DNA of 64,000 nucleotides from an uncultured Acidobacteriota bacterium (GCA_963839975.1 CAWIXA010000002.1:565949-629948); one strand, 5' to 3'; shown: positions 10,243 through 24,362, counted from the stretch's first letter. Translations and numbers: made by a program. The notes: generated from the sequence alone by a model not told the origin.

Positions 10243-12195
10243 CTACTTCAAAATCACAAACGTTGTTTGCACGTTATAAATACTCTGAGGAACGGTCAGC
10301 GGCGCCACGATCGTGGTCGCGGTGTTGTCGGTCAGGAATTCCACCGACACGCTGTATGTACCCTTGGGGCAAACTCCCGTCGCACCCGAGGGCAGAATGC
10401 AACTGCTGGTGTCCCAATTGAAAAGGTACTGTTGGTTGTTATCGCCCTTGAACAAAGGCTGCGCCAAGCCTGAGCTTCCATTCGAGACCAATCCAATTGG
10501 AACGAACATTTGGTTGTTGTGGGTATCTTTGGTTTGTGCCACCGCCAGGAGCACCGTCGCGCCCGTAACATAAGATCCCGACTGGCACGAATTGCCGGGC
10601 GCGGCGGAAGCCAGCTTAATTTTCACCGGCACCGACTTCCCGGCCGAAAAACTTGATGCCGGCAAGTCCCACGCCAGGGTATTAGTGTTAAAGGTATTGT
10701 TCACCGGCGATTGAAATCCGCAGAACGCACCGGCCGGCGAGGCAGCGGTGTTGGGCTTCGAATTCATCAGAAAGATATTGCAGTCGGTTTTTTTAACTCC
10801 ACCCACGCTGGAATCCTGGGGTAGGTAACCATTAATCGGCCAAGTGCCAAGTTGAGCCAGACTCACCGAACCTGGCTGACAATCGTCGTTAAGGTCGGAG
10901 CAAACCAGCAATTGCGAGTCGGCCGCGCTTGCAGAAAACTGGTGCGCAACCTCAAAGTTCAACGTGGTGCCGTCCTTCGCTTTGCAGTTGGGGTCGTTGT
11001 TAAAAGTGGTGCCAGGTGTAATGTGAAGGCCTGCAGTCCCAATGCCAGCGACGAACCCATCCAAGCCAAGATTCACAATCGGGTCAGCGGCACCGCCAAC
11101 CAGGGAAGTATTGATCAGGCCGGCGACGTAGGTTGGGTTATAGAGATTTACGGCAATCTGTCCGCTGCAGGAATTCGCAACTTGGCTGATCTCCATGGCG
11201 GCAAATCCAAAATTAGCGATCTTGTCGCCATTCGGCCCGGCAGTCAGTGGCAAGCTGGTGGCTGAAGGCGCAAGCGCGAGTCCAATGGCAGGGAACGGAA
11301 CCGATGTGGTCGCAAGCAGCTTGCATCCCTTAACGGTCAGCACCGAACCCTTGGTTCCGGAGGCCACCGCCGCGTAAAGCGTATCGTCCAACGCGGTCTG
11401 CAGGAAGTTCGGCACATCTTTGCCTTTGAAGGTCTGGCAAGTGGTTGAACCTTGACCCTGGGAATTGAAGTGCAAAATATTCGCTTTGCCACCTTGGTCC
11501 GATACGTAGAGATCGCCAAAAGCTCCTCTGGCGATGCCCAACGGTTGCGACAGTCCAGAAATCAGCGGAGTCGGATCAATACTGGCGAGTGAGACCGGCG
11601 CGTGCAGGACATTGCCGTTCGCGTTGTCCACAATCAGCAGGTCCCCGGTGTTCTTCAGCGCGACGCCTTGATATTTGGCTGTGAGCGTTGTGAGCGGCGC
11701 CTGGTTGACGGCCACCGCACCCGAAGCCGATCCTAGTGGGATGCTCGTGATGCTATACGGATACGTGATAGTCGAGCTAGCCGACACCACCCAGACGCCG
11801 CCCCCGTTGACGTCTTGACTGGTCACAATCAGGTCACCCGTCGCGGTGATACGGCCACACTGCGGATGAGTTAGCGCCCCTCCCGAGTAAATAGCCTCCG
11901 GAGTGATGGGTGCTGTCGCCGTCGGATCAAATCTGACGATCTTGTTATTCGCCGTATCGCAGGCGTAAACCAGATAACGTGTGCTCCCGACAGCCGAATT
12001 GTCCGGCGCGACAACCATGCCTTCATAGTCGGCGCCGAGGGTCGAAACCAGAAGCGTCTCGCTGCCCGAAGCAGTGTCAATGCTGTAGATGTTTCCGGCA
12101 GTGCCGGTGGAAACGAAGACGGTGGGCGATCCGGCCCACGCCTGAGCGGCAAGAAAGCACACAACGGTTACAAGCAAGCGACGAAGACAGCGCAT
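10243..12195 (-). CDS. Secreted protein with NHL/beta-propeller-like repeats, function unknown
   Basis: I chose the internal ATG at 12195 because AGGAGG lies 6 nt upstream and it begins a signal peptide, MRCLRRLLVTVVCFLAAQAWAGS. An NHL-like repeat is present, e.g. SGLSQPLGIARGAFGDLYVSDQGG. The 75 codons upstream in the track ORF look non-coding. Confidence 0.6.
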   Translation of the reverse strand: MRCLRRLLVTVVCFLAAQAWAGSPTVFVSTGTAGNIYSIDTASGSETLLVSTLGADYEGMVVAPDNSAVGSTRYLVYACDTANNKIVRFDPTATAPITPEAIYSGGALTHPQCGRITATGDLIVTSQDVNGGGVWVVSASSTITYPYSITSIPLGSASGAVAVNQAPLTTLTAKYQGVALKNTGDLLIVDNANGNVLHAPVSLASIDPTPLISGLSQPLGIARGAFGDLYVSDQGGKANILHFNSQGQGSTTCQTFKGKDVPNFLQTALDDTLYAAVASGTKGSVLTVKGCKLLATTSVPFPAIGLALAPSATSLPLTAGPNGDKIANFGFAAMEISQVANSCSGQIAVNLYNPTYVAGLINTSLVGGAADPIVNLGLDGFVAGIGTAGLHITPGTTFNNDPNCKAKDGTTLNFEVAHQFSASAADSQLLVCSDLNDDCQPGSVSLAQLGTWPINGYLPQDSSVGGVKKTDCNIFLMNSKPNTAASPAGAFCGFQSPVNNTFNTNTLAWDLPASSFSAGKSVPVKIKLASAAPGNSCQSGSYVTGATVLLAVAQTKDTHNNQMFVPIGLVSNGSSGLAQPLFKGDNNQQYLFNWDTSSCILPSGATGVCPKGTYSVSVEFLTDNTATTIVAPLTVPQSIYNVQTTFVILK

Positions 12196-12777
12196 GATGG
12201 TTCCTCCTGGGAGCGCGATAGCGGGAAGAGGCCAGGGGAAAGAGCCCGCCACGCGTCCATCCTTGATAGTCGAAAATCCTTTCAAAGTCAAGATAAACAG
12301 AGCCGGAATGGGCGTCCCACGCGGGATTTGGGTGGCCCTGGGCACCATCGCAACGACCGGGCTGAGTTTCCTGGCTTGACGGCACGGCCACCACGCATTT
12401 CGACGGCCAGTTTGACGCACCGTTCGGCGGGATGAGACTATCCGCGTCGGCCAACACTGCGTTTAGTTTACGTTCCAATCCTGTGTTTCTTCAGGAGGCG
12501 CGAAGTGACCGCACCGCGAAATGTGATGCAAAGTTTTGCACTTTTCATCCTGCTGGCCGGGGCTGATCGAACAGGGTTGGGTGAGAACCCTTCTGATCAC
12601 CTCAAACAAGGCTTCGGGACTGCGCCGACTTCTGCCGGCCGCGAGTCTTGTGGCATTGGATAAATGCCTTTCATCTGGTGATGGCGTGAATCCCTGTGCG
12701 CACTTGCGAATCCGCAGGGCGGGCAGCGATACTTTTTGTCCAAGCTCATGCGGGTTTGATCTTTAGATTTTTCATTT

Positions 12778-13659
12778 TTGATGGCTCAGATTTCAGAGGG
12801 CAGCTTCGTTTTCCACTTTATGTCACGAGAACCGCGATCGGTAAATTCCGGCAAGCAGAAGCCGCAACGCCCGAAGGCGAAGGCTTCGCATTCCAGCGAA
12901 ACCCATGAACTGACGGAACTGGCACTGCGCGCCTGTTTGGTGGCGAACGACGCCGCATTTAACTTCCGGGACTTTCTGGCCAACGCTTCGCACATGGCGT
13001 TTTTGGCGGTGCGGGATTGCGAAAAAGAACTGGACCGCATTGAGCAGGAGATGGATGAGGAGCTTCCGGCGGCCATCACCCAGGTCAGCGAATTGGAAGC
13101 GCGGGAACTGCTGGCGTGTCTGCGGTTCAGCAACGAACTGGAGCGAATCGGCGACCTGCTGTGGTGGGTGGCGCAGCGGGCACAGAGTTTGCCCGTCCGG
13201 ATACCCAAGGCCGACGCGCAGGAACTGATGGAGATGACCGGCATTCTGGAGAAGATGCTGCAAAGCGTCCGCGAGGGATTTACCCAGCGCGAGTTGGAGC
13301 CGGCGAGCTACGTATTGCGCGCCGATCGTGAAATCGACCGGGTGTACCGGGCGCTGTTTCGCCGTCACGTGACCAACAGCGGCGAGAAGAACATGCAACA
13401 CAGCGCGGACGTGCTGTTAATGGCGCAGTCGCTGGAGCGCGCCGGAGATCACGCCACGAACCTGGCGGAAGAGTTGTTCCGGCTGATCGAAGGCCGCAGC
13501 CTGCGGCACACCCCGAAGACGGCACGTGAAGGATTAAAAATACGCCGGGAAAGCGGCCCACAAATTAACTTGCTGGAAGTTGCGGCAGGTGATAGCATCC
13601 CGCAAATTTCGCGTGGAGGCTCCCATGGTCACCGTACTTCGGCCCCTTTCCACCAGTGA
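12778..13659 (+). CDS. PhoU-domain protein (PhoU-like regulator)
   Basis: Two PhoU-type repeats are present: RFSNELERIGDLLWW and AQSLERAGDHATNLAEELF, plus DREIDRVYRALFRRH. No pst genes are nearby. The start is uncertain (12778, 12781 or 12820). The 3' end overlaps the next gene by 35 nt. Confidence 0.7.
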   Translation: MMAQISEGSFVFHFMSREPRSVNSGKQKPQRPKAKASHSSETHELTELALRACLVANDAAFNFRDFLANASHMAFLAVRDCEKELDRIEQEMDEELPAAITQVSELEARELLACLRFSNELERIGDLLWWVAQRAQSLPVRIPKADAQELMEMTGILEKMLQSVREGFTQRELEPASYVLRADREIDRVYRALFRRHVTNSGEKNMQHSADVLLMAQSLERAGDHATNLAEELFRLIEGRSLRHTPKTAREGLKIRRESGPQINLLEVAAGDSIPQISRGGSHGHRTSAPFHQ

Positions 13660-14548
13660 GTTGCTGGACCGGACTTTTCATCTGTACCGGAACAACTTCG
13701 TCGTGTTTGTAGGCATAGCGGCGATTCCACAGTTGTTCGTGCTCGCGCTCCGTGTTGTGGTCAGGGCGACGCCAGACGTAAATCAAATCGGCGAGTTTTT
13801 TCTCGTCTCGGTCGGTGTTGCGATCGTCAGCTTCATTGCGGCGGAGACCTCCCAGGCGGGGGCCGTAATGGCCGTCTCGAACCTACAGCTCGACCGTCCC
13901 GCTGGCGTCAGCGATGCGTTTCGTTCCGTGCAAAGCAGTCTTCTGCGGGTAATATGGGTCTCTTTTGCCGTGCTGTTTATTCCCATCTTGTTTGCAATTC
14001 CCGTTCTGATCGTTGTAGGGGTTGTGGCTGGAATCGCTGGCGGAGTTGTTGGCGGTGGACTTGGCAACGTCGGAGCGATTCGGCTCGTGTCTTTTTCTTT
14101 GGTGCTGATCGTGCCGCTCATCGCGTTGCGATGGTGGCTGGCGTGGTCTCTGGTGGTACCCGTCACGGTGCTAGAGGGCGGTGGGCTCCGGGTTAGCATG
14201 CGCCGCAGCAAAGCGCTAACCAAAGGCTGTCGGGGCCGAATCTTCTTAATCTACTTGCTGATTGGTATCCTCGTTGCGATCGTTTCATGGATGATCCAAC
14301 TGCCGCTGTTAGCATTGATAGGAGTTCGATCCCTCCGAGAGCCTGGCACCATGACCGCAGCGGCACAAGCGATCTCAGCTGCGGGTGTGTTCCTTAGCAC
14401 AAGCTTGGTCGGATCCCTGGCTACGATCGCTCTGACTCTCATCTATTACGATCAACGGGTGCGCAAGGAAGGCTTCGACCTGCAACTGATGATGTCCACT
14501 TTGGAGGGCGGGGGGCAAGCCGCCTCTGCCCCCGCTAGCGTGTCCTAG
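13625..14548 (+). CDS. Polytopic membrane protein, tandem paralogue A (conserved N- and C-termini; GP-PDE-membrane-domain-like)
   Basis: ATG 13625 is preceded by GGAGG. The N-terminus is MVTVLRPLSTSELLDRTFHLYRNNF, followed by about 6 hydrophobic segments. The C-terminus is LTLIYYDQRVRKEGFDLQLMMSTLE. Confidence 0.7.
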   Translation: MVTVLRPLSTSELLDRTFHLYRNNFVVFVGIAAIPQLFVLALRVVVRATPDVNQIGEFFLVSVGVAIVSFIAAETSQAGAVMAVSNLQLDRPAGVSDAFRSVQSSLLRVIWVSFAVLFIPILFAIPVLIVVGVVAGIAGGVVGGGLGNVGAIRLVSFSLVLIVPLIALRWWLAWSLVVPVTVLEGGGLRVSMRRSKALTKGCRGRIFLIYLLIGILVAIVSWMIQLPLLALIGVRSLREPGTMTAAAQAISAAGVFLSTSLVGSLATIALTLIYYDQRVRKEGFDLQLMMSTLEGGGQAASAPASVS

Positions 14549-14578
14549 CGCGGCTACCGGGAACAAGGAGTGAGCCTG

Positions 14579-15502
14579 ATGGTCACCATCTTGCGTCCGC
14601 TATCCACCAGCGAACTATTGGATCGGACGTTCCATTTGTATCGGAACAACTTCCTCATGTTCGCCGGAATTGCGGCCATACCTCAGATTCCGGTCCTCGG
14701 TTTGCGATTGACAGATTCAGCTCTACTATTGCGACAAGTAATCCCGAGCCGAGGCATACGGACCGCGATTTTTTATTTGTCCGGCTTCCTCGCCGTTGAA
14801 ATCGCGCACGCGGCGACAGTCTCCGCCGTCTCCAGATTGCACTTGGGGCAACCCGCAGACATCGCATCCGCCTATGGCTCCTCCGCCCGAAGCCTGCCTC
14901 GCGCCGTCACGAGCGCCTCTATTGCCGTTGTGCTCCCCCTCCTGTTCGGATTTGTTGTTTTCGCAATGTTGATATGGGGAGTCGGCTTTTTCGTTATTGG
15001 TCTTAGGGTTGCAATCTGGATTCGAGGAGTGACAGCACTGCTCGCATTTCTTGCTGCGTTTCTTTTAGCTATTCGATTGTGGACAAGATGGTCCCTGGTC
15101 GTGCCAATTGCAGTTCTCGAGCGAAGCGCCATCCGTCCTACTATGAGTCGGAGTCGATTGCTTACGGAAGACCGCCGCACGCGGATCTTTGCGGTTTGTA
15201 TCCTCGTCGTTGCACTTACGTGGATCGTCAGCATACTCTTTCAAACGCCGTTCTATTACATCGCCGGATGGCGAGGGCTGTCGCGCCAGGCTAGTATCAG
15301 CAACGTTGGCGTGACGATGTCAGCGATTGGGAACTTCGCAAGCACGAGTCTGGTGGGACCGCTCTTGACCATTGCGCTGACCCTGATCTACTACGATGAA
15401 CGTGTGCGCAAGGAAGGGTTCGACCTGCAACTGATGATGTCCACGCTGGAGAGCGGCAGCGCGCCGAATGTCGCTGCGGCGCCGGCAGGCACCGGTGTTT
15501 AG
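14579..15502 (+). CDS. Polytopic membrane protein, tandem paralogue B
   Basis: ATG 14579 is preceded by AAGGAG. The N-terminus is MVTILRPLSTSELLDRTFHLYRNNF. The C-terminus is LTLIYYDERVRKEGFDLQLMMSTLE. Confidence 0.7.
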   Translation: MVTILRPLSTSELLDRTFHLYRNNFLMFAGIAAIPQIPVLGLRLTDSALLLRQVIPSRGIRTAIFYLSGFLAVEIAHAATVSAVSRLHLGQPADIASAYGSSARSLPRAVTSASIAVVLPLLFGFVVFAMLIWGVGFFVIGLRVAIWIRGVTALLAFLAAFLLAIRLWTRWSLVVPIAVLERSAIRPTMSRSRLLTEDRRTRIFAVCILVVALTWIVSILFQTPFYYIAGWRGLSRQASISNVGVTMSAIGNFASTSLVGPLLTIALTLIYYDERVRKEGFDLQLMMSTLESGSAPNVAAAPAGTGV

Positions 15503-15513
15503 GAGCGGATTCC

Positions 15514-16419
15514 ATGATCACGGTGTTGCGGCCGCTTTCGACCGGCGAGTTGCTGGACCGGACGTTCCACCTGTACCGCAACAATTTCCTGGTTTTCGCG
15601 GGGATCACTGCCATTCCACAACTGTTTATTCTGGCGCTGCAACTGGGCGGCGCAGTGATGGTCATTGGACGGCGAGGGCCCGGCGGCGTGTACATGATTC
15701 TTGGCGGATATCTGTTGTTCTACCTCGCGATATTCATTTCGCAAGCGCCGACTATTGTTGCGGTTTCTAATCTTCAAATGGAAAAGCCCACGGGCATCGG
15801 GTCTGCGTATTCCTCTTCGAAAGGCAGTCTTTTGCGCGTGCTTTGGATTGTGTTCCTGATATTCGTGACGATGGGCGGTTTTTTCCTGGTGATGGGTATC
15901 GCGATAGGAATGCTGATTGGCGCGGCGAGCGCTGCTGGGTCGCCGTGGGTGAGTGGCACGGTTGCTTTCGTCACCATTACCGCGGCGGTTGTCTGGGCCT
16001 TGCGCTGGGTGTTGAACTGGTCTCTGGTGGTTCCCGCCACCGTCCTTGAAGGTGGATGGTTTCGAGCATCGATTCGGCGAAGCAAGACCCTCGCCAAGGG
16101 GAGCCGGTTCCGTATCTTTGTGGTGTATCTGCTGATGGGTTTGTTTGTGGCGGTTACCAGCTTTACGATTCAGTTCCTGCTGATGCTGTTGCCACAATTT
16201 TTTCACATACGCAATTTGCACACGATCCAAGCTGCCATCCTGGGGATGCAAGCGATCGGGATTTTCGTGAGCACGACCCTGGTCGGAGCGCTGGCGACAA
16301 TCGCGCTGAGCCTCATCTACTATGATCAAAGGGTGCGCAAGGAAGGTTTCGATCTGCAACTGATGATGTCCACGCTGGAGAGCGGCGCACCGACAGCCGC
16401 CGCCGCGCCCGCTTCGTGA
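15514..16419 (+). CDS. Polytopic membrane protein, tandem paralogue C
   Basis: ATG 15514 is preceded by AGGAG. The N-terminus is MITVLRPLSTGELLDRTFHLYRNNF. The C-terminus is LSLIYYDQRVRKEGFDLQLMMSTLE. Confidence 0.7.
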   Translation: MITVLRPLSTGELLDRTFHLYRNNFLVFAGITAIPQLFILALQLGGAVMVIGRRGPGGVYMILGGYLLFYLAIFISQAPTIVAVSNLQMEKPTGIGSAYSSSKGSLLRVLWIVFLIFVTMGGFFLVMGIAIGMLIGAASAAGSPWVSGTVAFVTITAAVVWALRWVLNWSLVVPATVLEGGWFRASIRRSKTLAKGSRFRIFVVYLLMGLFVAVTSFTIQFLLMLLPQFFHIRNLHTIQAAILGMQAIGIFVSTTLVGALATIALSLIYYDQRVRKEGFDLQLMMSTLESGAPTAAAAPAS

Positions 16420-17405
16420 TGAGCCTTTCCCGATACGCTACCGCGTTGTTGCTGAGCTGTCTGTGCCTGAGCATGGCTACGGGTGCGCAGAGTAGCGACG
16501 TGCAGCCTGTACAGGTGTTCCAAGCCCGGGCACTTTCATTTGCCGAATACGTATCCGAACTTGATCGTTTGACCGTGTTGGCCGGCCAGGCCGACCAGGA
16601 CTCAAATGCCGCTGCCACTGCGATCGCGGAACTGCGTGGTGGCTGGAAAGTGCAGACTGACGGCGGTGAGTTTGCCATCCCGACTGACCGGATATTCGAC
16701 CAATTTGAAAAGCTGCAAAAGCACCCGGATCGCGAGATCCGCGATGGCCTGCTGGAGCGGCTTACCACCATGAAGGCCGACGCGCAAGCTTTTCAGCAGA
16801 CGCCACAGGATTCGGCAGCAGCGCGGGCTTCCCTTGCCCAGATTCTTGCGCGCAGCGAGTTCCACCAGGTCCGCGGCCCCACCTGGTTCGACCGGCTCAA
16901 GGCGAGGATCATTTCGTGGATTGTCCGCATGCTAACGATAGCGTTCGGGGCTTCTTCCGCTCCGGTAGTGGGATGGGTTTTGGTTTGGGGGCTGGTGGCG
17001 GTCGCGGTGCTGGCGCTGGCCTGGTTTATCTATCGCGAGATGAAACGCAACGCGCGCCTTGAAACCATCATGCCGGAGGTCTTGCCGGTTTCGGCCAAAC
17101 AGTGGCGAATATGGCTGGCAGAGGCGCAGGCCGCCGCGGCAAAAGGCTTGTGGCGCGATGCCATCCACCTGGCGTACTGGGGCGGGATTTCATCTCTGGA
17201 AGAGAGCGGGATGTGGCGTCCGGATCAGGCACGTACGCCGCGCGAGTATTTGCGTCTGCTGCCCGCCGACAGCCAGCATCGTACAGCTCTTTCCACGCTG
17301 ACACGGCAACTCGAAGTCACGTGGTATGGAAATCAGCCGGCGGGAGCGGAAACTTTTGCTGCCACTCTCACGCACCTGGAGGAAATGGGATGCCGGCAGC
17401 AGTAA
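16416..17405 (+). CDS. DUF4129-like membrane protein
   Basis: A signal/anchor (LLLSCLCLSMATGAQS) is followed by central TM helices. The C-terminal motif WRPDQARTPREYLRLL is typical of DUF4129. The start (GTG 16416 or ATG 19 nt... ATG 16419) overlaps the previous stop. Confidence 0.65.
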   Translation: MMSLSRYATALLLSCLCLSMATGAQSSDVQPVQVFQARALSFAEYVSELDRLTVLAGQADQDSNAAATAIAELRGGWKVQTDGGEFAIPTDRIFDQFEKLQKHPDREIRDGLLERLTTMKADAQAFQQTPQDSAAARASLAQILARSEFHQVRGPTWFDRLKARIISWIVRMLTIAFGASSAPVVGWVLVWGLVAVAVLALAWFIYREMKRNARLETIMPEVLPVSAKQWRIWLAEAQAAAAKGLWRDAIHLAYWGGISSLEESGMWRPDQARTPREYLRLLPADSQHRTALSTLTRQLEVTWYGNQPAGAETFAATLTHLEEMGCRQQ

Positions 17406-18556
17406 GCGCGGGAGACCGCAAGATCCTGTTCGTGGCGGGCGGAGCGTTTCTGCTGCTCATCGCTCTGGGATTCTTACTGGCGCCTGCCGGCGACGCTGGA
17501 GCCAACTCGGCAACTACTTATTCCACTGCTTCCGAAGGCGCAAAGGCCGCTTATCTGCTGCTGCAGGAGACGGGGTATCACGTGGAACGCTGGCAGCAGT
17601 CTTCCACGTCACTAAAGGCGGACAGCAACACGGTTGTGATTATCGCGGACCCCAGTATGATTCCGAACGGGAAACAAAAGGCTGCGCTGGAGCAATTCAT
17701 ATCCGGCGGCGGACGCGTGATCGTCACCGGACTGAGGGGCGCCAAATTTCTTCCGGAAGACTCGTCGGAATACGACGAAGCTCCGAAAACACCGTGGGCC
17801 GAGTTCAAAGCGCTGACGCCGTCGGCAATCACCCGGGCCGCGCCGAAAATTACTCTGGCACCAGTGGCGCATTGGTCGGGCACAGGTACTGGTCTTTACG
17901 GGGACAGCGATCACACTGTGGTCACACACTTCGCACACGGAAAAGGCGACGTGCTTTGGATGGCCTCGGCCACGCCGATGACGAATGCTGGAATCAAAGA
18001 ACCAGGCAATCTCGAGTTTCTCCTTACGGCAATCGGCGATAAGCAACGAACCCGGGTGCTTTTCGATGAATATGTTCACGGCTACAACGAAGGGGATGAG
18101 CCGGAACGAAGCCATCCGTTAATGACGGCGCTGCTTTTGCAATCGGTGGTGCTGGGACTGGCGGCGATCCTGACGTTTTCCCGCCGCAGTGGGCCGCTTC
18201 GGCCCATGCCCGCCGAATCCCGCCTCGCGCCGCTGGAATTTGTGGAGACGCTGGGCGGCCTGTATCAGCAGGCGCATGCGGCGTCGGTCGCCGTGGACGT
18301 CTATTACCAGCGCTTTCAGTACTGGGCCACCCGCCGACTGGGCATCGCAAATAAGGCGACTCCGGAAGATCTGGACCGCGCGGTCCGCGAACGCTGGAAT
18401 TTGCATGACGACAAATTCCTGCCCACGCTGCTGGCAGCGGCGTCAGCACGCTATCAACCCGACCTTCCCCAGAAAGACGCACTGAAGATCGTTCAGGCGC
18501 TTTATTCTTATGCAGTCACGCTGAAGCTCTTCCCCGTCGCAAAGGAGAAACATTAA
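17390..18556 (+). CDS. DUF4350-like protein
   Basis: The ATG at 17390 is preceded by GGAGGA and begins MPAAVSAGDRKILFVAGGAFLLLIALGFLL (N-terminal TM). VVIIADPSMIPNGKQKAALEQFISGGGRVIVTG matches the DUF4350 pattern. The first 96 codons of track ORF 17102.. overlap the preceding gene and are probably not translated. Confidence 0.65.
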   Translation: MPAAVSAGDRKILFVAGGAFLLLIALGFLLAPAGDAGANSATTYSTASEGAKAAYLLLQETGYHVERWQQSSTSLKADSNTVVIIADPSMIPNGKQKAALEQFISGGGRVIVTGLRGAKFLPEDSSEYDEAPKTPWAEFKALTPSAITRAAPKITLAPVAHWSGTGTGLYGDSDHTVVTHFAHGKGDVLWMASATPMTNAGIKEPGNLEFLLTAIGDKQRTRVLFDEYVHGYNEGDEPERSHPLMTALLLQSVVLGLAAILTFSRRSGPLRPMPAESRLAPLEFVETLGGLYQQAHAASVAVDVYYQRFQYWATRRLGIANKATPEDLDRAVRERWNLHDDKFLPTLLAAASARYQPDLPQKDALKIVQALYSYAVTLKLFPVAKEKH

Positions 18557-19503
18557 TGCAAGCCGTTTCGCAGCTACTCGATCAACTCCGCCAGCAGACG
18601 GGCAGAGTCGTGGTTGGCCAGGAAGAATTTCGCGACCAATGCCTGGTCACTCTGCTTTGCCGCAGCCATGCGTTGCTGGAAGGCGTACCTGGGGTCGCAA
18701 AGACTTTGCTGGTAAAAACGCTGTCGCGGATTCTAGGGCTGGAATTTCAGCGGGTGCAGTGCACTTCGGACCTGATGCCTGCGGACATCATCGGCACGAA
18801 CATTCTGAATATGGCGACCAGCAGCTTCAATCTGCACAAGGGGCCGGTATTCACTGATCTGCTTCTGGTGGATGAAATCAACCGCATGCCTCCACGGACG
18901 CAAGCCGCGCTGCTGGAGTGCATGGAGGAATATCAGGTCACGATTGATGGCACGCGTTATCAGCTTCCGGCGGAATTCAGCGTGTTTGCCACGCAAAACC
19001 CGATCGAGTTTGAGGGGACGTATCCTCTTCCCGAGGCGCAGCTTGACCGTTTCTTGTTGAAGATTCGCGTTGGATATCCAGCGGCGAATGACGAAGTACA
19101 GATGTTGACGAATGTGCAGAACGGCTTTGAGGCCCGCGATTTGGACAGCATAGGGCTGATACCGTTGCCCGCTGGTCTGCTGGCGGCGGCGCAGCAAGAG
19201 GTGAAGGCCGTCAAAGTAGAACCGGCACTCTTTAATTACATTGTGCAGATTGCGCGGCGGACGCGTGATTGGCCTTCGCTGTCGCTGGGAGCAAGTCCGC
19301 GCGCAGCCATCAGTTTGATGGTGGTAGCACGAGCGATGGCCGCCATAGACGCTCGCGATTATGTGATTCCGGATGACGTGAAAGCCGCTGCGCCCCCGGT
19401 ACTGCGGCACAGGCTGGTGCTCAAGCCGGAGGCCGACCTGGAAGGGCTTAGCGCTGACCTCATCATTGCCGATGTTCTCCGCGCGGTTGAGGTCCCGAAG
19501 TGA
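18556..19503 (+). CDS. MoxR-family AAA+ ATPase
   Basis: Walker A is LLEGVPGVAKTLL and Walker B is LLVDEINRMPPRTQAALLECMEE. FATQNPIEFEGTYPLPEAQLDRF is the classic MoxR/AAA_3 core. The start overlaps the previous stop (TAATG). Confidence 0.95.
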   Translation: MQAVSQLLDQLRQQTGRVVVGQEEFRDQCLVTLLCRSHALLEGVPGVAKTLLVKTLSRILGLEFQRVQCTSDLMPADIIGTNILNMATSSFNLHKGPVFTDLLLVDEINRMPPRTQAALLECMEEYQVTIDGTRYQLPAEFSVFATQNPIEFEGTYPLPEAQLDRFLLKIRVGYPAANDEVQMLTNVQNGFEARDLDSIGLIPLPAGLLAAAQQEVKAVKVEPALFNYIVQIARRTRDWPSLSLGASPRAAISLMVVARAMAAIDARDYVIPDDVKAAAPPVLRHRLVLKPEADLEGLSADLIIADVLRAVEVPK

Positions 19504-20879
19504 CGGATGCCACCACGCTCGTCCCGCCCGCGACCACGGCGAAGGCTGAGAAACGGAAGCGGTTAGCCGGAGCTTTTGGCCCGCGCTTTTTTCTGCTGAT
19601 GGCGATCGGGCTGGTCTGGCTTGGCGGGGCGTTCCATGATCCGCGATTCTTCTACGCGATGGCTGCGTGGGACGTTCTTGTCTTGATTGCATGGGGAATT
19701 GACCTGGCCAGCCTTCCCTCTCCCAAGAGTCTTTCTATCACTCGTCGCTGGAGCCGAGCGGCGGCGCTTTCGGTGCCCAACACGATTGAGTTGCTGCTGG
19801 AAAATTCCAGCCGGGTTACGGTAGTGGCGACGCTCATTGACAATGTTCCGCCGGAATTGCGGACGGCGGCGCCCGAGCTTGGGCTCAAGTGCCGCGGTCG
19901 AGGCGAAGCTGTAGTTTCCTATCAAATTACGCCTATGCGGCGTGGCGATATCGAGCTTGGGGCGGTTTACCTGCGTTATCAGACGCCCATGCGGCTGGCG
20001 GAACGCTGGGCGAGGGCGAGGGTGGAGCAGAAGGTCTGCGTCTATCCGAATCTCGAAGAAGCGCGGCAGCAGGCAATTTACCTGGTGCGCAGCCGGCAGA
20101 TCGAGATGGAAAAACGGCATACGCGGATTCGCGGCGCAGGGCGTGAATTTGAAAGCCTGCGCGAGTATCGCGAAGGCGATGAGTTTCGGGACATCTGCTG
20201 GACGGCAGCTGCCCGCCGCGGAAAACTGGTCACTCGCATCTTTCAGATCGAACGCAGCCAGACCATCTGGCTGGTGCTCGATGCCGGCCGCCTGATGCGG
20301 GCGCGGGTTTCGGGATTGAGCAAACTCGACTTTGCGGTGAACGCCGCGCTCAGCCTGGCCGAGGTCGCGCTCGGAACCGGAGACCGCGTCGGCCTGCTGG
20401 CTTATGGACGGCAGGTGCAGAAGCGCATGCTGCCTTATCGCGGCAGCGCGCATTTGCGGCAGATGATTCAACAGTTGGCATACGTCAAGGAAGACCCGCT
20501 CGAAGGCGATCACCTGCAAGCGGTCAGCGCGCTGTTGAACACACAGAAGCGGCGCAGCCTGATGGTGTGGCTGACAGACTTTCCTGAAACTGCGATGACG
20601 CCGGAAGTGATCGATGCGGCCTCCGAGGCTGCGTCAAAGCATTTGGTTCTATTCGTAGTCATCGGCCAGCCGGACCTGGCTGCATTGGCGGCGGGCGATC
20701 CAGATTCAGTGACCAACATGTATCGAACAACAGCGGCGCAGGAGACTATGCATCGACGAGAAGTACTGCTCGCCAAGCTGCGGCAGCGGGGAGCGTTGGC
20801 GGTGGAAGTCAGTTCAGCCGCGGCGTCGGTTACGGTGGTGAATTCTTACTTGGATGTGAAGCACAGGAATTTGCTGTAG
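19500..20879 (+). CDS. DUF58 protein (vWA-like partner of MoxR)
   Basis: The DUF58 signature is GAGREFESLREYREGDEFRDICWTAAARRGKLVTRIFQIERSQTIWLVLDAG. Two N-terminal TM segments are present. The GTG start overlaps the MoxR stop (GTGA). Confidence 0.9.
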   Translation: MTDATTLVPPATTAKAEKRKRLAGAFGPRFFLLMAIGLVWLGGAFHDPRFFYAMAAWDVLVLIAWGIDLASLPSPKSLSITRRWSRAAALSVPNTIELLLENSSRVTVVATLIDNVPPELRTAAPELGLKCRGRGEAVVSYQITPMRRGDIELGAVYLRYQTPMRLAERWARARVEQKVCVYPNLEEARQQAIYLVRSRQIEMEKRHTRIRGAGREFESLREYREGDEFRDICWTAAARRGKLVTRIFQIERSQTIWLVLDAGRLMRARVSGLSKLDFAVNAALSLAEVALGTGDRVGLLAYGRQVQKRMLPYRGSAHLRQMIQQLAYVKEDPLEGDHLQAVSALLNTQKRRSLMVWLTDFPETAMTPEVIDAASEAASKHLVLFVVIGQPDLAALAAGDPDSVTNMYRTTAAQETMHRREVLLAKLRQRGALAVEVSSAAASVTVVNSYLDVKHRNLL

Positions 20880-20890
20880 AGGGAACGTCG

Positions 20891-21526
20891 ATGGCAAAGA
20901 GTTTACGGACATTGTTGCTGATCACATGGGTCATTGCGGCCGCAAGGTCAAACCCTGCTCAAGAGGCCAGAGAGATCACCAATACCGAGCCGGGAGTTTA
21001 TGTTCTCGCGGACTTGTTCAGGCGGGCTGACACCGTTGCCCTGGTGAAAATCGTCTCCGGCGATACAGAAGCATACGAGATAGCGGTCTACAAAGCCGAG
21101 GTGGTAAGGAGTTTTAAGGGCTCCGCATCGGGGCGGGTCATCTACTTCGGTCCGTATGTTGGAAAAGAGCTCGGATCGGAATACTTCGTGTTCCTTCGCA
21201 GGGTATCCGAGCCCTTGAATCCGAAGACGCCGGCAGCATCTGGATACGGAACTATTCACTACGAGGAAACTTTCAACCAAGGTTACAGCGCGATGATGAC
21301 TTCATATGAGTGTGTCTTTAGTGGAAAGGAAATCGCAGATCAATGCGGAGACGCTGCAAGGGTTTGCACAGATTACATCAAGCTGCCAAAAGCAATTCCC
21401 ATCTCTCCCCCGATGACCAAAGACACCCCGTTCGGTTGCCGTTGGGTAAGGAAGCCTATTTTCACTTCGTTACTTCAGGCAATCGGTGACTCCAAGGAAC
21501 CTTCTCGTCCCGCCCCGAACAAATAA
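20891..21526 (+). CDS. Secreted hypothetical protein
   Basis: This 211-aa ORF has a signal peptide (MAKSLRTLLLITWVIAAARS). I recognise no family. It is visibly more AT-rich than its neighbours and lies 11 nt after the DUF58 stop. Confidence 0.5.
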   Translation: MAKSLRTLLLITWVIAAARSNPAQEAREITNTEPGVYVLADLFRRADTVALVKIVSGDTEAYEIAVYKAEVVRSFKGSASGRVIYFGPYVGKELGSEYFVFLRRVSEPLNPKTPAASGYGTIHYEETFNQGYSAMMTSYECVFSGKEIADQCGDAARVCTDYIKLPKAIPISPPMTKDTPFGCRWVRKPIFTSLLQAIGDSKEPSRPAPNK

Positions 21527-22443
21527 GCGCACAGCAGCACAAACAGCGCCGCCGACATCGCAAACTTCAGCGGCACCGCCAACCCAGTCGGAGACACGAA
21601 AGCTTCAATCGTCCCCGCGATAATCAGGATCGGAACAGTTCCCAGCACCAGCGTCGTCGCTTCCCTTCCGGCGAGCGCCAACGAATCTCTCCGCGGGAGC
21701 ATTCCGGGAAACAACAAGCCATGGGCGATTTTGAATCCCGCGCCGCCGGCAAGAAAAATTGCAGGCAGTTCCAGAGCCCCGTGTGGAGCGACAAAACTCC
21801 ACAGGCTCAAACTCATTCCCGACAGGCTGCACGCCGTCCCGATCACTCCCATGAGCAGCCCATTGAAAAACATCATGTAGATCGTGCCCAGCCCCGCGGT
21901 GATTCCGGTTGCATAGGTCATGAACGAGACGCTCATGTTGTTGGTCATGATCTCGCTCGAGGCCAGCGGTTTCACCGAGATGATGGAATGGGTCCACATT
22001 TCTTTGCGCTGGATGGTCTGCACCATTTTGGGGCCGAGGACCTGCAACTGGAAATCCGGGTCTTGCAGGGTGAGTGCGACTCCGGCGAGGCCGCCAGCCA
22101 CAAAAACGGCCACGGCGAGGGCGCAATATTTCAGGTTTCGGCGGAAGACGCGCGGATATTCTTCCTTGAAAAACGCAAAAATGGCCCACGGACTCGCGCG
22201 ATGGCCTACGTAAATGATATTGTGGGCGCGCGTCATCAATTGATTGAGATAACGCGCAAAATGGACAGAACTGGGATCTTGCCGGATGGCAGCGAGGTCG
22301 GCGGCAGTTTGGCGGTATAAGAGGCTGAGTTCCTGAAGTTCGCCGTGGCTGAGCGACTTCACGCCTCTGCTGGCGCTGGCGACCAGGGCTTCCAGCTTCT
22401 GCCAGTACGGTTTGCGTTTTTCAATCCAGTGAGTGGAGATCAA
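21475..22443 (-). CDS. SpoIIM-like (stage II sporulation protein M / DUF95 family) membrane protein
   Basis: The N-terminal soluble region is WQKLEALV...LSLLYRQTAADLAAIRQ. A multi-TM core follows, with the family motif PHGALELPAIFLAGGAGFKIA. The start codon is TTG. Confidence 0.75.
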   Translation of the reverse strand: MISTHWIEKRKPYWQKLEALVASASRGVKSLSHGELQELSLLYRQTAADLAAIRQDPSSVHFARYLNQLMTRAHNIIYVGHRASPWAIFAFFKEEYPRVFRRNLKYCALAVAVFVAGGLAGVALTLQDPDFQLQVLGPKMVQTIQRKEMWTHSIISVKPLASSEIMTNNMSVSFMTYATGITAGLGTIYMMFFNGLLMGVIGTACSLSGMSLSLWSFVAPHGALELPAIFLAGGAGFKIAHGLLFPGMLPRRDSLALAGREATTLVLGTVPILIIAGTIEAFVSPTGLAVPLKFAMSAALFVLLCAYLFGAGREGSLESPIA

Positions 22444-22445
22444 TT

Positions 22446-23228
22446 GTGCAGTCCCTTGACCGGTTCGATATAGATACTCCGGAGCAAATTGCGCTGGAGC
22501 TGCCGTTGGCAGGCATCGGCAGCCGCCTGCTGGCCATCGCGACCGATAGTTTACTGCAAGTGGTCTTCGTACTCGTGCTGTTTCTTATTGGGGCAGTGGT
22601 TTCAGCGACAAGTAGTTCACCGCTGGGTTTTGGAGAGTATGGCCGTTTCTTCTCGCAGACGGTTGGCGCAATTCTTTTGGTGCTGGTTCCCTTCTGTCTT
22701 TACTGGGGGTACTTCGCGTTTTTTGAAATCATTTGGGGCGGGAAGACGCCGGGCAAGCGGCTGGCCGGGATTCGCGTCATCCACCAGAGCGGGCGCCCGA
22801 TGACGGCGGTCGAGTGTATTGGACGAAACCTCATGCGGGGAGTGGACTTTCTTCCCGGCGTGTACGGGGTTGGCCTGATCTGCATGATGTGCAATAAACA
22901 GAACCGCCGGGTGGGGGACTTTGTGGCAGGGACTATCGTGGTCCATGACAAGGCGCAGGAATCGGTGGCTCCGAGCTGGGGCAACCGCGTGGCGAGCGAG
23001 CCAGCGCTGCTGGAGTTGCGCAAGCTGGCTCCTGACGACCTGGTGCTGATCGAGACTTACCTAAGCCGCAGATACGAGGTGGACCCGGTGGTGCGCATCA
23101 CCACGGCCCAGCGCATTGTCGCCATGGTCACGCAAAAGACCGGGACGCCGAAGCCAGCGGAGCAAGCGGATGACGACTTCCTAGAGAACATCGCCCGGCA
23201 GCTTCGCGACGGTGCCAGCTTCCGGTAG
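22446..23228 (+). CDS. RDD-family membrane protein
   Basis: RLLAIATDSLLQ and WGGKTPGKRLAGIRVI are typical RDD-domain motifs. Three TM segments are present. The start is GTG. Confidence 0.8.
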   Translation: MQSLDRFDIDTPEQIALELPLAGIGSRLLAIATDSLLQVVFVLVLFLIGAVVSATSSSPLGFGEYGRFFSQTVGAILLVLVPFCLYWGYFAFFEIIWGGKTPGKRLAGIRVIHQSGRPMTAVECIGRNLMRGVDFLPGVYGVGLICMMCNKQNRRVGDFVAGTIVVHDKAQESVAPSWGNRVASEPALLELRKLAPDDLVLIETYLSRRYEVDPVVRITTAQRIVAMVTQKTGTPKPAEQADDDFLENIARQLRDGASFR

Positions 23229-23455
23229 AGCCCCCTTTTCGATTTTCATTTTTCCAATTTTTCGCGGACCTTGGATCGTGTCTCATAGCTTAACCGGTGT
23301 GAAGCTATCATTTCCTCACCCATTAAAAGACCAAGCTAGACAGCATCTCATCTCGAAGCGGTGCTCAAGCCTGGCCATTTTGATCCTCCTTGGTCTCGTT
23401 CGCACCGCCAATTGCAACGGAAGCAGACAATCGGTCGATCTGTGCCCAATCCGAG

Positions 23456-23863
23456 TCAACTGTTTCGCCCGCTCCCCTGCGAGGCGACCGCGGAGCCCGT
23501 CAACTCTTCAACTTGTTTCTCCAGTTCTTTCACTCTGCGCTCCGTCTCTTCCGCGGACAGAAGCCTCAGCATGGTGTTGAACAGGGGCGCCAGGCCGGCG
23601 GCCGTCCTCGGATGGAGACGCTTCGCGTATACGTCATCGATCATCTGGGCGACAGCGACTTTAACGGCACTGATCGAGTCGATTTGAGGCAAAGGGCGAG
23701 GTGCGTCGCTGACCACATGACGATTCTTGCGGCCGCCGGCCTGGCCTAGTCGTGCCGCCATCTCCGGGTTCGTGTGGAAGTAGCAGTATCCGCTGTCCGT
23801 GGCCGCGGCCGCGCATGGGTTCCCTTGCTTCGTTTTACCTCCGCAGCGGCTCGTCTCCGACAT
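23456..23863 (-). CDS. Hypothetical protein with an N-terminal Cys/His zinc-ribbon-like motif
   Basis: This is a 135-aa ORF. It begins MSETSRCGGKTKQGNPCAAAATDSGYCYFH and ends in a coiled coil (ERRVKELEKQVEEL). I recognise no family. Confidence 0.45.
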   Translation of the reverse strand: MSETSRCGGKTKQGNPCAAAATDSGYCYFHTNPEMAARLGQAGGRKNRHVVSDAPRPLPQIDSISAVKVAVAQMIDDVYAKRLHPRTAAGLAPLFNTMLRLLSAEETERRVKELEKQVEELTGSAVASQGSGRNS

Positions 23864-23948
23864 GGCCCCTATGCCTCCCTCGCGGCCCGAAGCTTTGCGC
23901 GAAATTCTTGTATCACCGCATCAATCCGCGCATTTCCTTTGGCAAATT

Positions 23949-24362
23949 CTATTCTGGCGGCTTCCGGGTCTTTTGCGGCGTTCTCCATAAAACGGGCGCC
24001 TTCAAGACATTGCGCCGCGCACTCTCGATTCGTAGCTCTTCTTCCGTTGGCATTGGACGCTTCCCCATCAAATAATCCCGGCCGCAATTCGGCGGACACT
24101 TACCGAACTCCCAATTACAGAATTCCCAATCTGGCCGCTGCAAAGGTGAGCTAGGTGGAGATTCAAAGATCATTCCAGGAGTGCGCAGCCCATGCACCGG
24201 ACACGGCACGTATAGGATCGCTTCCAGTTCCTCCACTGTGTGATAGTTGGTTTCGCAAATTCTCCGGCCCTTGCCTCTGCACGTGCACGCGGCCAGCGCG
24301 CGTGCTTCCCTTATGATCCTCACGGTGCGATCTATTCGATCTAATCTTTCTGATAGTCCCAT
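23949..24362 (-). CDS. Cys-rich hypothetical protein
   Basis: This is a 137-aa ORF containing CTCRGKGRRICE...CPVHG...CNWEFGKCPPNC. Its 3' part overlaps a second plausible frame (23869..24099), so the true end is unresolved. Confidence 0.35.
   Translation of the reverse strand: MGLSERLDRIDRTVRIIREARALAACTCRGKGRRICETNYHTVEELEAILYVPCPVHGLRTPGMIFESPPSSPLQRPDWEFCNWEFGKCPPNCGRDYLMGKRPMPTEEELRIESARRNVLKAPVLWRTPQKTRKPPE

Follow-up and report, generated by a model that had tools for sequence, protein, structure and literature searches.

A widespread seven-gene MoxR membrane module with a triplicated first gene and a PhoU-like neighbour in an uncultured Acidobacteriota bacterium

The window analysed here, a stretch of 64,000 nucleotides (nt) from an uncultured Acidobacteriota bacterium (GCA_963839975.1 CAWIXA010000002.1:565949-629948), carries at positions 12778-23228 a row of genes grouped around a MoxR-type AAA+ ATPase: a PhoU-like gene, three paralogous genes for a polytopic membrane protein (memA, memB and memC, collectively mem), genes for DUF4129, DUF4350, MoxR and DUF58 proteins and for a secreted protein (ORF9), and finally genes for SpoIIM-family and RDD-family membrane proteins (Table 1). 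There is nothing unusual about the core of this locus: it represents a seven-gene MoxR membrane module (mem, DUF4129, DUF4350, MoxR, DUF58, SpoIIM and RDD genes) that is widespread but uncharacterised. An earlier reading of this DNA, made without database searches and referred to below as the sequence-only reading, had taken the first nine genes for a single operon headed by the PhoU-like gene. All eleven open reading frames (ORFs) were found on the strands it gave, and the junctions from the PhoU-like gene to ORF9, when recomputed, were identical to those it had listed (-35, +30, +11, -4, -16, -1, -4 and +11 nt), with ribosome-binding sites of the GGAG type ahead of most starts. A search against Rfam returned no match within 12000-24000.

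Table 1. Genes and the putative promoter at the MoxR locus, in window coordinates (aa, amino acids)
Feature	Position	Strand	Remarks
PhoU-domain paralogue	12820-13659	+	apparent neighbour, not module member; frameshifted near 13517-13519
Promoter-like element	13570-13598	+	TTGCTG, 17-nt spacer, extended -10 TGATAGCAT at 13590-13598
memA	13625-14548	+	six transmembrane segments, GPDPase_memb/DUF7847-like
memB	14579-15502	+	46% identical to memA; orthologous to second mem copy of loci L033, L034 and L035
memC	15514-16419	+	51% identical to memA; orthologous to second mem copy of locus L032 (genome G002)
DUF4129 protein	16416-17405	+	PF13559 36.1 bits, residues 260-319; GTGA overlap with memC
DUF4350 protein	17390-18556	+	PF14258 71.3 bits; transmembrane segments 12-30 and 244-262
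MoxR AAA+ ATPase, MRP type	18556-19503	+	AAA_3 204 bits, AAA_lid_2 82 bits
DUF58 protein	19500-20879	+	PF01882 105 bits, VWA_2 33.6 bits; transmembrane segments 22-40 and 54-72
ORF9, 211 aa	20891-21526	+	no Pfam match; between DUF58 and SpoIIM
SpoIIM-family membrane protein	21475-22443	-	PF01944 131 bits; convergent with operon
RDD-family membrane protein	22446-23228	+	PF06271 74.5 bits; divergent from SpoIIM, start codons 2 nt apart

Each of the module's six named Pfam families scores above its gathering threshold in the window, and the assignments to DUF4129, DUF4350, MoxR, DUF58, SpoIIM and RDD, originally made by eye, are thus upheld by hidden Markov model searches. For a wider view of the module, species-representative genomes were scanned with a pattern derived from the mem alignment, which yielded 505 relatives; the best 80 loci, nearly all from Acidobacteriota, were kept, and their gene content was determined by tblastn with the window proteins. 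The order mem, DUF4129, DUF4350, MoxR, DUF58, SpoIIM (minus strand) and RDD (plus strand) recurs in about 70 of these 80 loci, the SpoIIM gene occupying the same position in most of them, and the same set is found in the mycobacterial Rv3689-Rv3695 cluster, so that the set is indeed a recurrent one, as had been claimed. The five plus-strand core genes from memC to DUF58 are tightly coupled in the window, with junctions of -4, -16, -1 and -4 nt. Weak mem matches were obtained in only 3 of 40 other genomes of a phylum sample that includes the window and a locus labelled Dormibacterota, and a phylum-wide DUF4129 search returned mostly frames of about 700 aa of unchecked identity.

The ATPase at the centre of the module has intact Walker A (GVPGVAKT) and Walker B (LLLVDE) motifs, both kept in its orthologues, and matches a solved MoxR structure (PDB 2r44, E 3.7e-74); its AAA_3 and AAA_lid_2 domains, the intact Walker motifs and the adjoining DUF58 gene are together those of the MRP subfamily of MoxR proteins. 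The DUF58 protein consists of an N-terminal transmembrane hairpin and a vWA-like domain, in which the canonical DxSxS of MIDAS, the metal-ion-dependent adhesion site, was not found, the position reading DAGRL in the window and DxGRLM in all orthologues; a sequence search of the PDB matched no solved structure to this protein. By hydropathy and sequence, the DUF4129 protein is laid out as a signal peptide, a periplasmic helical domain, a transmembrane segment and the C-terminal DUF4129 domain, and the DUF4350 protein as an N-terminal transmembrane segment, a periplasmic GldG-like domain, a second transmembrane segment and a cytoplasmic tail. Elsewhere in the genome, outside the window, a 778-aa frame carries a further DUF4129 domain (G000:C2:862892-863077), and another contig has a second DUF58 gene (G000:C5:179669-179884). 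The divergent SpoIIM and RDD starts (22441-22448 in the window) are separated by no more than 1-2 nt in 40 of 62 loci (among L032-L111), the window included, so that the promoter and ribosome-binding site of each gene would lie inside the other gene, or the two mRNAs would be leaderless. One contig (CAWBXL010000088.1, loci L108 and L110) apparently bears the module twice, the oppositely oriented copies abutting with their RDD and SpoIIM genes.

That the membrane gene is triplicated proved correct: memA, memB and memC are 43-51% identical in pairs (E 2e-69 to 8e-92) and are the sole mem genes that the 4.1-Mb genome contains. Contrary to what had been supposed, the membrane protein is no acidobacterial addition to the module; because mem stands first in about 70 of the 80 loci, a single mem gene is what an acidobacterial module normally begins with. 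What is unusual is the number of copies: most loci have one, seven have two, and L032 and the window alone have three. The three proteins score 22.5-24.4 bits against PF10110 (GPDPase_memb), below the cut-off of 29.6, and PF25231 (DUF7847) has no match in the genome. Since these scores are sub-threshold, while some close homologues carry precomputed PF10110 or PF25231 matches, the mem proteins are related to GPDPase_memb and DUF7847 but are not scored members of either family. An AlphaFold2 model of MemA (mean predicted local distance difference test, pLDDT, 85.2) is an all-helical bundle with six transmembrane segments; a fold search with it gave nothing significant, the best hit being a choline-transporter-like protein at E 0.15, and a PDB sequence search with mem gave no match.

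A maximum-likelihood tree was built from 92 mem proteins, and in it the three copies of the window fall into one clade of nine rows (support 100/98) together with copies from four other genomes. Within it, memB belongs to a four-row clade with the second copies of L033, L034 and L035 (100/99), and memC has the second L032 copy as its sister (L032_m2; 100/99). As memB and memC have orthologues in other genomes, the duplications would be older than speciation and the types kept since; the tree thus points to two duplications of mem before the species of the genus diverged, with the copies retained as distinct orthologous types. Apart from this clade, mem has been duplicated independently in at least two lineages (L041/L072/L090, and L079). 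Every mem copy keeps an N-terminal helix (LRPLS.SELLDRTFHLYRNNF), a loop at about residues 174-201 and a C-terminal tail (IYYDxRVRKEGFDLQLM), and hydropathy and the positive-inside rule place all three of these elements, by prediction, on the cytoplasmic side. At the termini the paralogues share a protein identity above 0.9 and a third-codon identity of 0.5-0.75. On the latter figure, gene conversion was rejected as the cause of the conserved termini, and the combination of high protein with low third-codon identity is indicative of purifying selection.

The module appears to start at memA, behind a conserved extended -10 promoter motif of its own. The TGATAGCAT element lies inside the frameshift-extended tail of the PhoU-like gene (see below), 26 nt before the memA ATG, and is followed by a conserved CCCGCAAA and then by a Shine-Dalgarno sequence, GGAGG (13615-13619). 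The block upstream of the first mem gene is conserved in seven aligned genomes whose upstream neighbours differ (PhoU, RDD or unrelated genes), and in 79 of the 80 loci the pattern TGnTAnnnT occurs 25-48 nt ahead of the start codon of the leading mem gene, against 1.7% of background windows of 80 nt; it is absent ahead of memB and memC. Across loci the consensus TGTGcTACcATgCCgggCaA reads TGTGcTACcAT followed by the GC-rich gCCgggCaA, a region that can be written TGTGnTAnnAT-GCCGGGCAA; no conserved -35 element is present in this 80-locus consensus. The predicted promoter was detected by locus comparison alone; a consensus promoter scan gave fewer matches than shuffled sequence, and terminator matches stayed at chance level. 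The GC-rich gCCgggCaA block (13599-13612) comes directly after the -10 element, where it would form the discriminator and start-site region. In Escherichia coli, promoters under growth-rate or stringent control typically have GC-rich discriminator blocks. So strongly conserved an extended -10 element with a GC-rich discriminator, if it is indeed the promoter, offers a handle for studying the regulation of the module.

The PhoU-like gene, in contrast to what the sequence-only reading had proposed, appears to be neither the head of the operon nor part of the module, but a chance neighbour placed upstream by rearrangement in the window species and its sister species. Its product matches the Pfam PhoU family at 82.8 bits in two repeats and NCBIfam phoU_full (TIGR02135) at 96.4, below the equivalog cut-off of 130.25; its likely start is the ATG at 12820, from which homologues align, and not 12778. 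Homologues are numerous at 70-97% identity and mostly 224-238 aa long. All eight that were aligned end in ..PK(R/K)x(V/M/L)xD shortly after a conserved RSLRH, and the window protein runs about 45 residues further. Compared with homologue DNA, the window has one extra base near 13517-13519, six codons ahead of the ancestral stop; the other frame reads R-H-V-K-D-stop (TAA, 13535-13537), as in the homologues, and would give a protein of 238 aa. The overlap with memA therefore exists because of a one-base frameshift that is absent from every homologue, the ancestral gap between the two genes being 87 nt, as in the 97%-identical relative from the sister species (L026). The frameshift may be a real mutation or an assembly error. 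A TerC homologue outside the window (G000:C2:388331-389123) aligns as two adjoining pieces in different frames, an apparent frameshift as well, and the two cases together suggest that the assembly may contain indel errors.

Comparison of gene neighbourhoods bears on the same question. Two orthologues with 84% identity to the PhoU-like protein are encoded alone, between divergent NUDIX and convergent eutC/eutB genes; NUDIX and eutBC have no match in the genome of the window, and the next syntenic block (TerC, M28 peptidase, TatC and TatA) lies about 187 kb away in it, which indicates a rearrangement breakpoint right after the PhoU-like gene. The sister species keeps the adjacency of the PhoU-like and mem genes at about 90% nucleotide identity. 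Upstream of the PhoU-like gene the two differ (L026 1-3250 against window 10243-12672), the sister having a different gene there, a 1077-aa plus-strand ORF, which suggests that the PhoU-like gene is flanked by breakpoints on both sides. Four module-bearing genomes of the same genus have the PhoU-like orthologue on a different contig, and within 10 kb of the 80 related loci no match to the gene was found even at E 0.01; the adjacency is confined to the window and the one sister species. The co-occurrence check (none of 80 loci), the separate contigs in the four congeners, the frameshift-made overlap and the module's own putative promoter thus speak with one voice. The locus also shows that a tight gene overlap can arise by frameshift and need not signal an operon. 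The paralogue (12820-13537 in its ancestral extent) has a basic N-terminal extension and belongs to a highly conserved Terriglobales group of orthologues that is distinct from two further PhoU-domain genes that lie 5 kb apart elsewhere on the contig. With PhoU proper it has the two PhoU repeats in common; PhoU proper, however, reaches the equivalog score and adjoins pstSCAB, whereas the gene of the window stays below the cut-off, and pst neighbours were found neither in the window nor in the orthologous loci.

Between DUF58 and SpoIIM, ORF9 is a real gene for a secreted protein, located +11 nt from DUF58 as claimed; its membership in the module, which had also been proposed, did not hold, as homologues are found in none of the 80 module loci. 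The family, from Terriglobales, consists of proteins of about 200 aa with a signal-peptide-like N terminus and conserved cysteines (356 homologues), and relatives stand in unrelated contexts, for instance next to an ABC transporter or, in one case, flanked by lpxA and lpxI. The convergent gap between DUF58 and SpoIIM measures about 60 nt or less in most loci and 596 nt in the window, with ORF9 in between, and ORF9 is most simply read as a local insertion at this junction. It is probably co-transcribed with the module, because it follows DUF58 by 11 nt and has a ribosome-binding site. Its AlphaFold2 model (pLDDT 75.8) gave weak matches to NTR/TIMP-like OB folds (best Foldseek E 4.5e-3, TM-scores 0.37 and 0.56).

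We consider the genomic part of this account, that is, a module starting at memA, a PhoU-like neighbour, an ORF9 insertion and old duplications of mem, to be very likely. As to what the module does, vWA partners are known to act as adaptors of MoxR proteins (PMC11834572, PMC12067865), and by analogy the DUF58 protein, with its transmembrane hairpin and vWA-like adaptor domain, might recruit and tether a cytoplasmic MoxR hexamer to the inner membrane. MoxR would then use ATP to assemble or remodel a complex of the mem, DUF4129 and DUF4350 proteins, in which polytopic mem would present its conserved elements on the cytoplasmic side and DUF4129 and DUF4350, both bitopic, would expose domains to the periplasm, with SpoIIM and RDD as further membrane partners. 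A role in envelope or membrane homeostasis is probable. Such remodelling by MoxR and DUF58 is the mechanism that we favour, if only tentatively; the account taken as a whole, genomic and mechanistic parts together, seems to us likely to be the best explanation. Within it, the three mem types would most likely form a mixed (hetero-oligomeric) core, as is suggested by their retention, and the expansion into differentiated paralogues kept through speciation would argue that mem is a stoichiometric subunit or client of the machine rather than a bystander. A stronger version, in which the three paralogues make up an obligate hetero-oligomeric core whose N-terminal helix and YYDxRVRKEGFDL tail are the handles gripped by MoxR and DUF58, is doubtful; if it were true, this lineage would offer a natural dissection of subunit roles in an unstudied envelope machine of more than a dozen phyla.

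Several observations weigh against this account. The module is patchy within the genus, and because mem was found in only 6 of the 24 congeners searched, it is accessory there. With a vWA domain that is devoid of the canonical MIDAS, the analogy of the DUF58 protein to metal-dependent vWA adaptors is loose. For the putative promoter, conservation is the only argument, and its -35 element is weak. Folding of the region between the ancestral stop of the PhoU-like gene and memA revealed no significant structure and no terminator-like hairpin with a U-tract, and because no terminator was found between that stop and the promoter element, some read-through from the PhoU-like gene into the module may occur.

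This last point belongs to the case for a single nine-gene transcript headed by a PhoU-domain regulator that would link the MoxR machine functionally to the sensing of phosphate or metal, a reading that can also appeal to the common strand, to the 35-nt overlap as assembled and to the adjacency preserved at about 90% nucleotide identity in the sister species. Yet every homologue is without the frameshift that makes the overlap, the gene is missing from the 80 loci, sits on other contigs in four congeners and is monocistronic in the two 84%-identical orthologous loci, and both the module's promoter motif and the synteny breakpoint fall between it and memA, so that we hold the single transcript to be highly unlikely. 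Redundancy of the mem copies, as products of dosage or neutral drift that have neither distinct roles nor a hetero-oligomer to build, would fit the sufficiency of one copy in most genomes, the independent duplications in at least three lineages and the presence of the same conserved motifs in all three copies. But the copies are only 43-51% identical and all intact, memB and memC have orthologues in other species (100/99) and were retained through speciation, and the cores have diverged while the termini are under purifying selection; mere redundancy is unlikely on these grounds.

The module might instead be a novel secretion or membrane-remodelling apparatus with mem as its channel and ORF9 as its cargo, given that DUF4350 resembles GldG, that most components are membrane-bound or exposed to the periplasm, that the six-transmembrane mem protein has no matched fold and that a secreted-protein gene follows DUF58. 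What makes this quite unlikely is that the conserved parts of mem are predicted to be cytoplasmic and its periplasmic loops are very short, that ORF9 is not associated with the module elsewhere, and that the 80 loci share neither a conserved ATPase of the secretion type nor a secretin nor any obvious cargo. A secondary match of MoxR to PF20030 (bpMoxR) at 33 bits, which is far exceeded by its 204 bits for AAA_3, brings to mind the MoxR-vWA systems for conflict or defence described by Kaur et al. 2020; no PADLOC model matched any of nine proteins tested, no beta-propeller or effector domain was found, and the gene order is stable across many genomes. A defence system was accordingly rejected, being extremely improbable. 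The MoxR membrane module, with mem as its integral first gene and with the conserved elements of mem all predicted to face the cytoplasm, is thus the reading that we retain, and this module is among the more widespread conserved clusters to which no function has been assigned.

The module is worth comparing with related systems in other organisms. The canonical acidobacterial module (e.g., L038-L109) agrees with that of the window in its seven families, in their order and orientation and in the promoter motif, but mostly has a single mem gene, and it lacks both the PhoU-like gene upstream and an ORF9 at the DUF58/SpoIIM junction. In the Bat operon, known from Bacteroides, Riemerella and Francisella, and in the mycobacterial moxR1-DUF58-vWA cluster, a MoxR gene of the AAA_3 type is directly followed by DUF58, as in the window; in Bat-type operons, however, MoxR comes first and is followed by the vWA and TPR proteins BatA-E, whereas MoxR in the window comes after mem, DUF4129 and DUF4350 and has SpoIIM and RDD as companions, and the TPR or additional vWA genes of a Bat operon were not found in 12778-23228. 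Mutants in operons of MRP-type MoxR show stress and envelope phenotypes (PMC11834572, PMC12067865). The archaeal neighbourhood of arCOG01314 (DUF4350), MoxR and vWA genes has been predicted to encode a secretion or membrane-remodelling complex, with DUF4350 noted as similar to GldG, and in bacteria, genes for vWA proteins and COG0714 ATPases were noted next to those for SpoIIM homologues (Makarova et al. 2015, PMC5898192). The triad of DUF4350, MoxR and vWA/DUF58 is common to this neighbourhood and the window, while the archaeal loci have S-layer or Ig-like partners and, unlike the window, are without mem, DUF4129 and RDD genes. Literature on the DUF names and on Rv3689-Rv3695 yielded no functional study. 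The closest parallel outside the phylum is that mycobacterial cluster, Rv3689-Rv3695 (moxR2 = Rv3692; MAB_0386c-0392c in M. chelonae/M. abscessus), which together with its M. chelonae orthologues carries the same annotated set and is co-regulated as a block in M. chelonae (PMC8191103). Likened by annotation and locus-tag order, it has the same components, namely, membrane protein, DUF4350, MoxR, DUF58, SpoIIM-family and RDD, with a single membrane gene in the first position as against three in the window. Altogether, the window copy is a further member of a known, uncharacterised module, distinguished by a modest lineage-specific expansion of mem.

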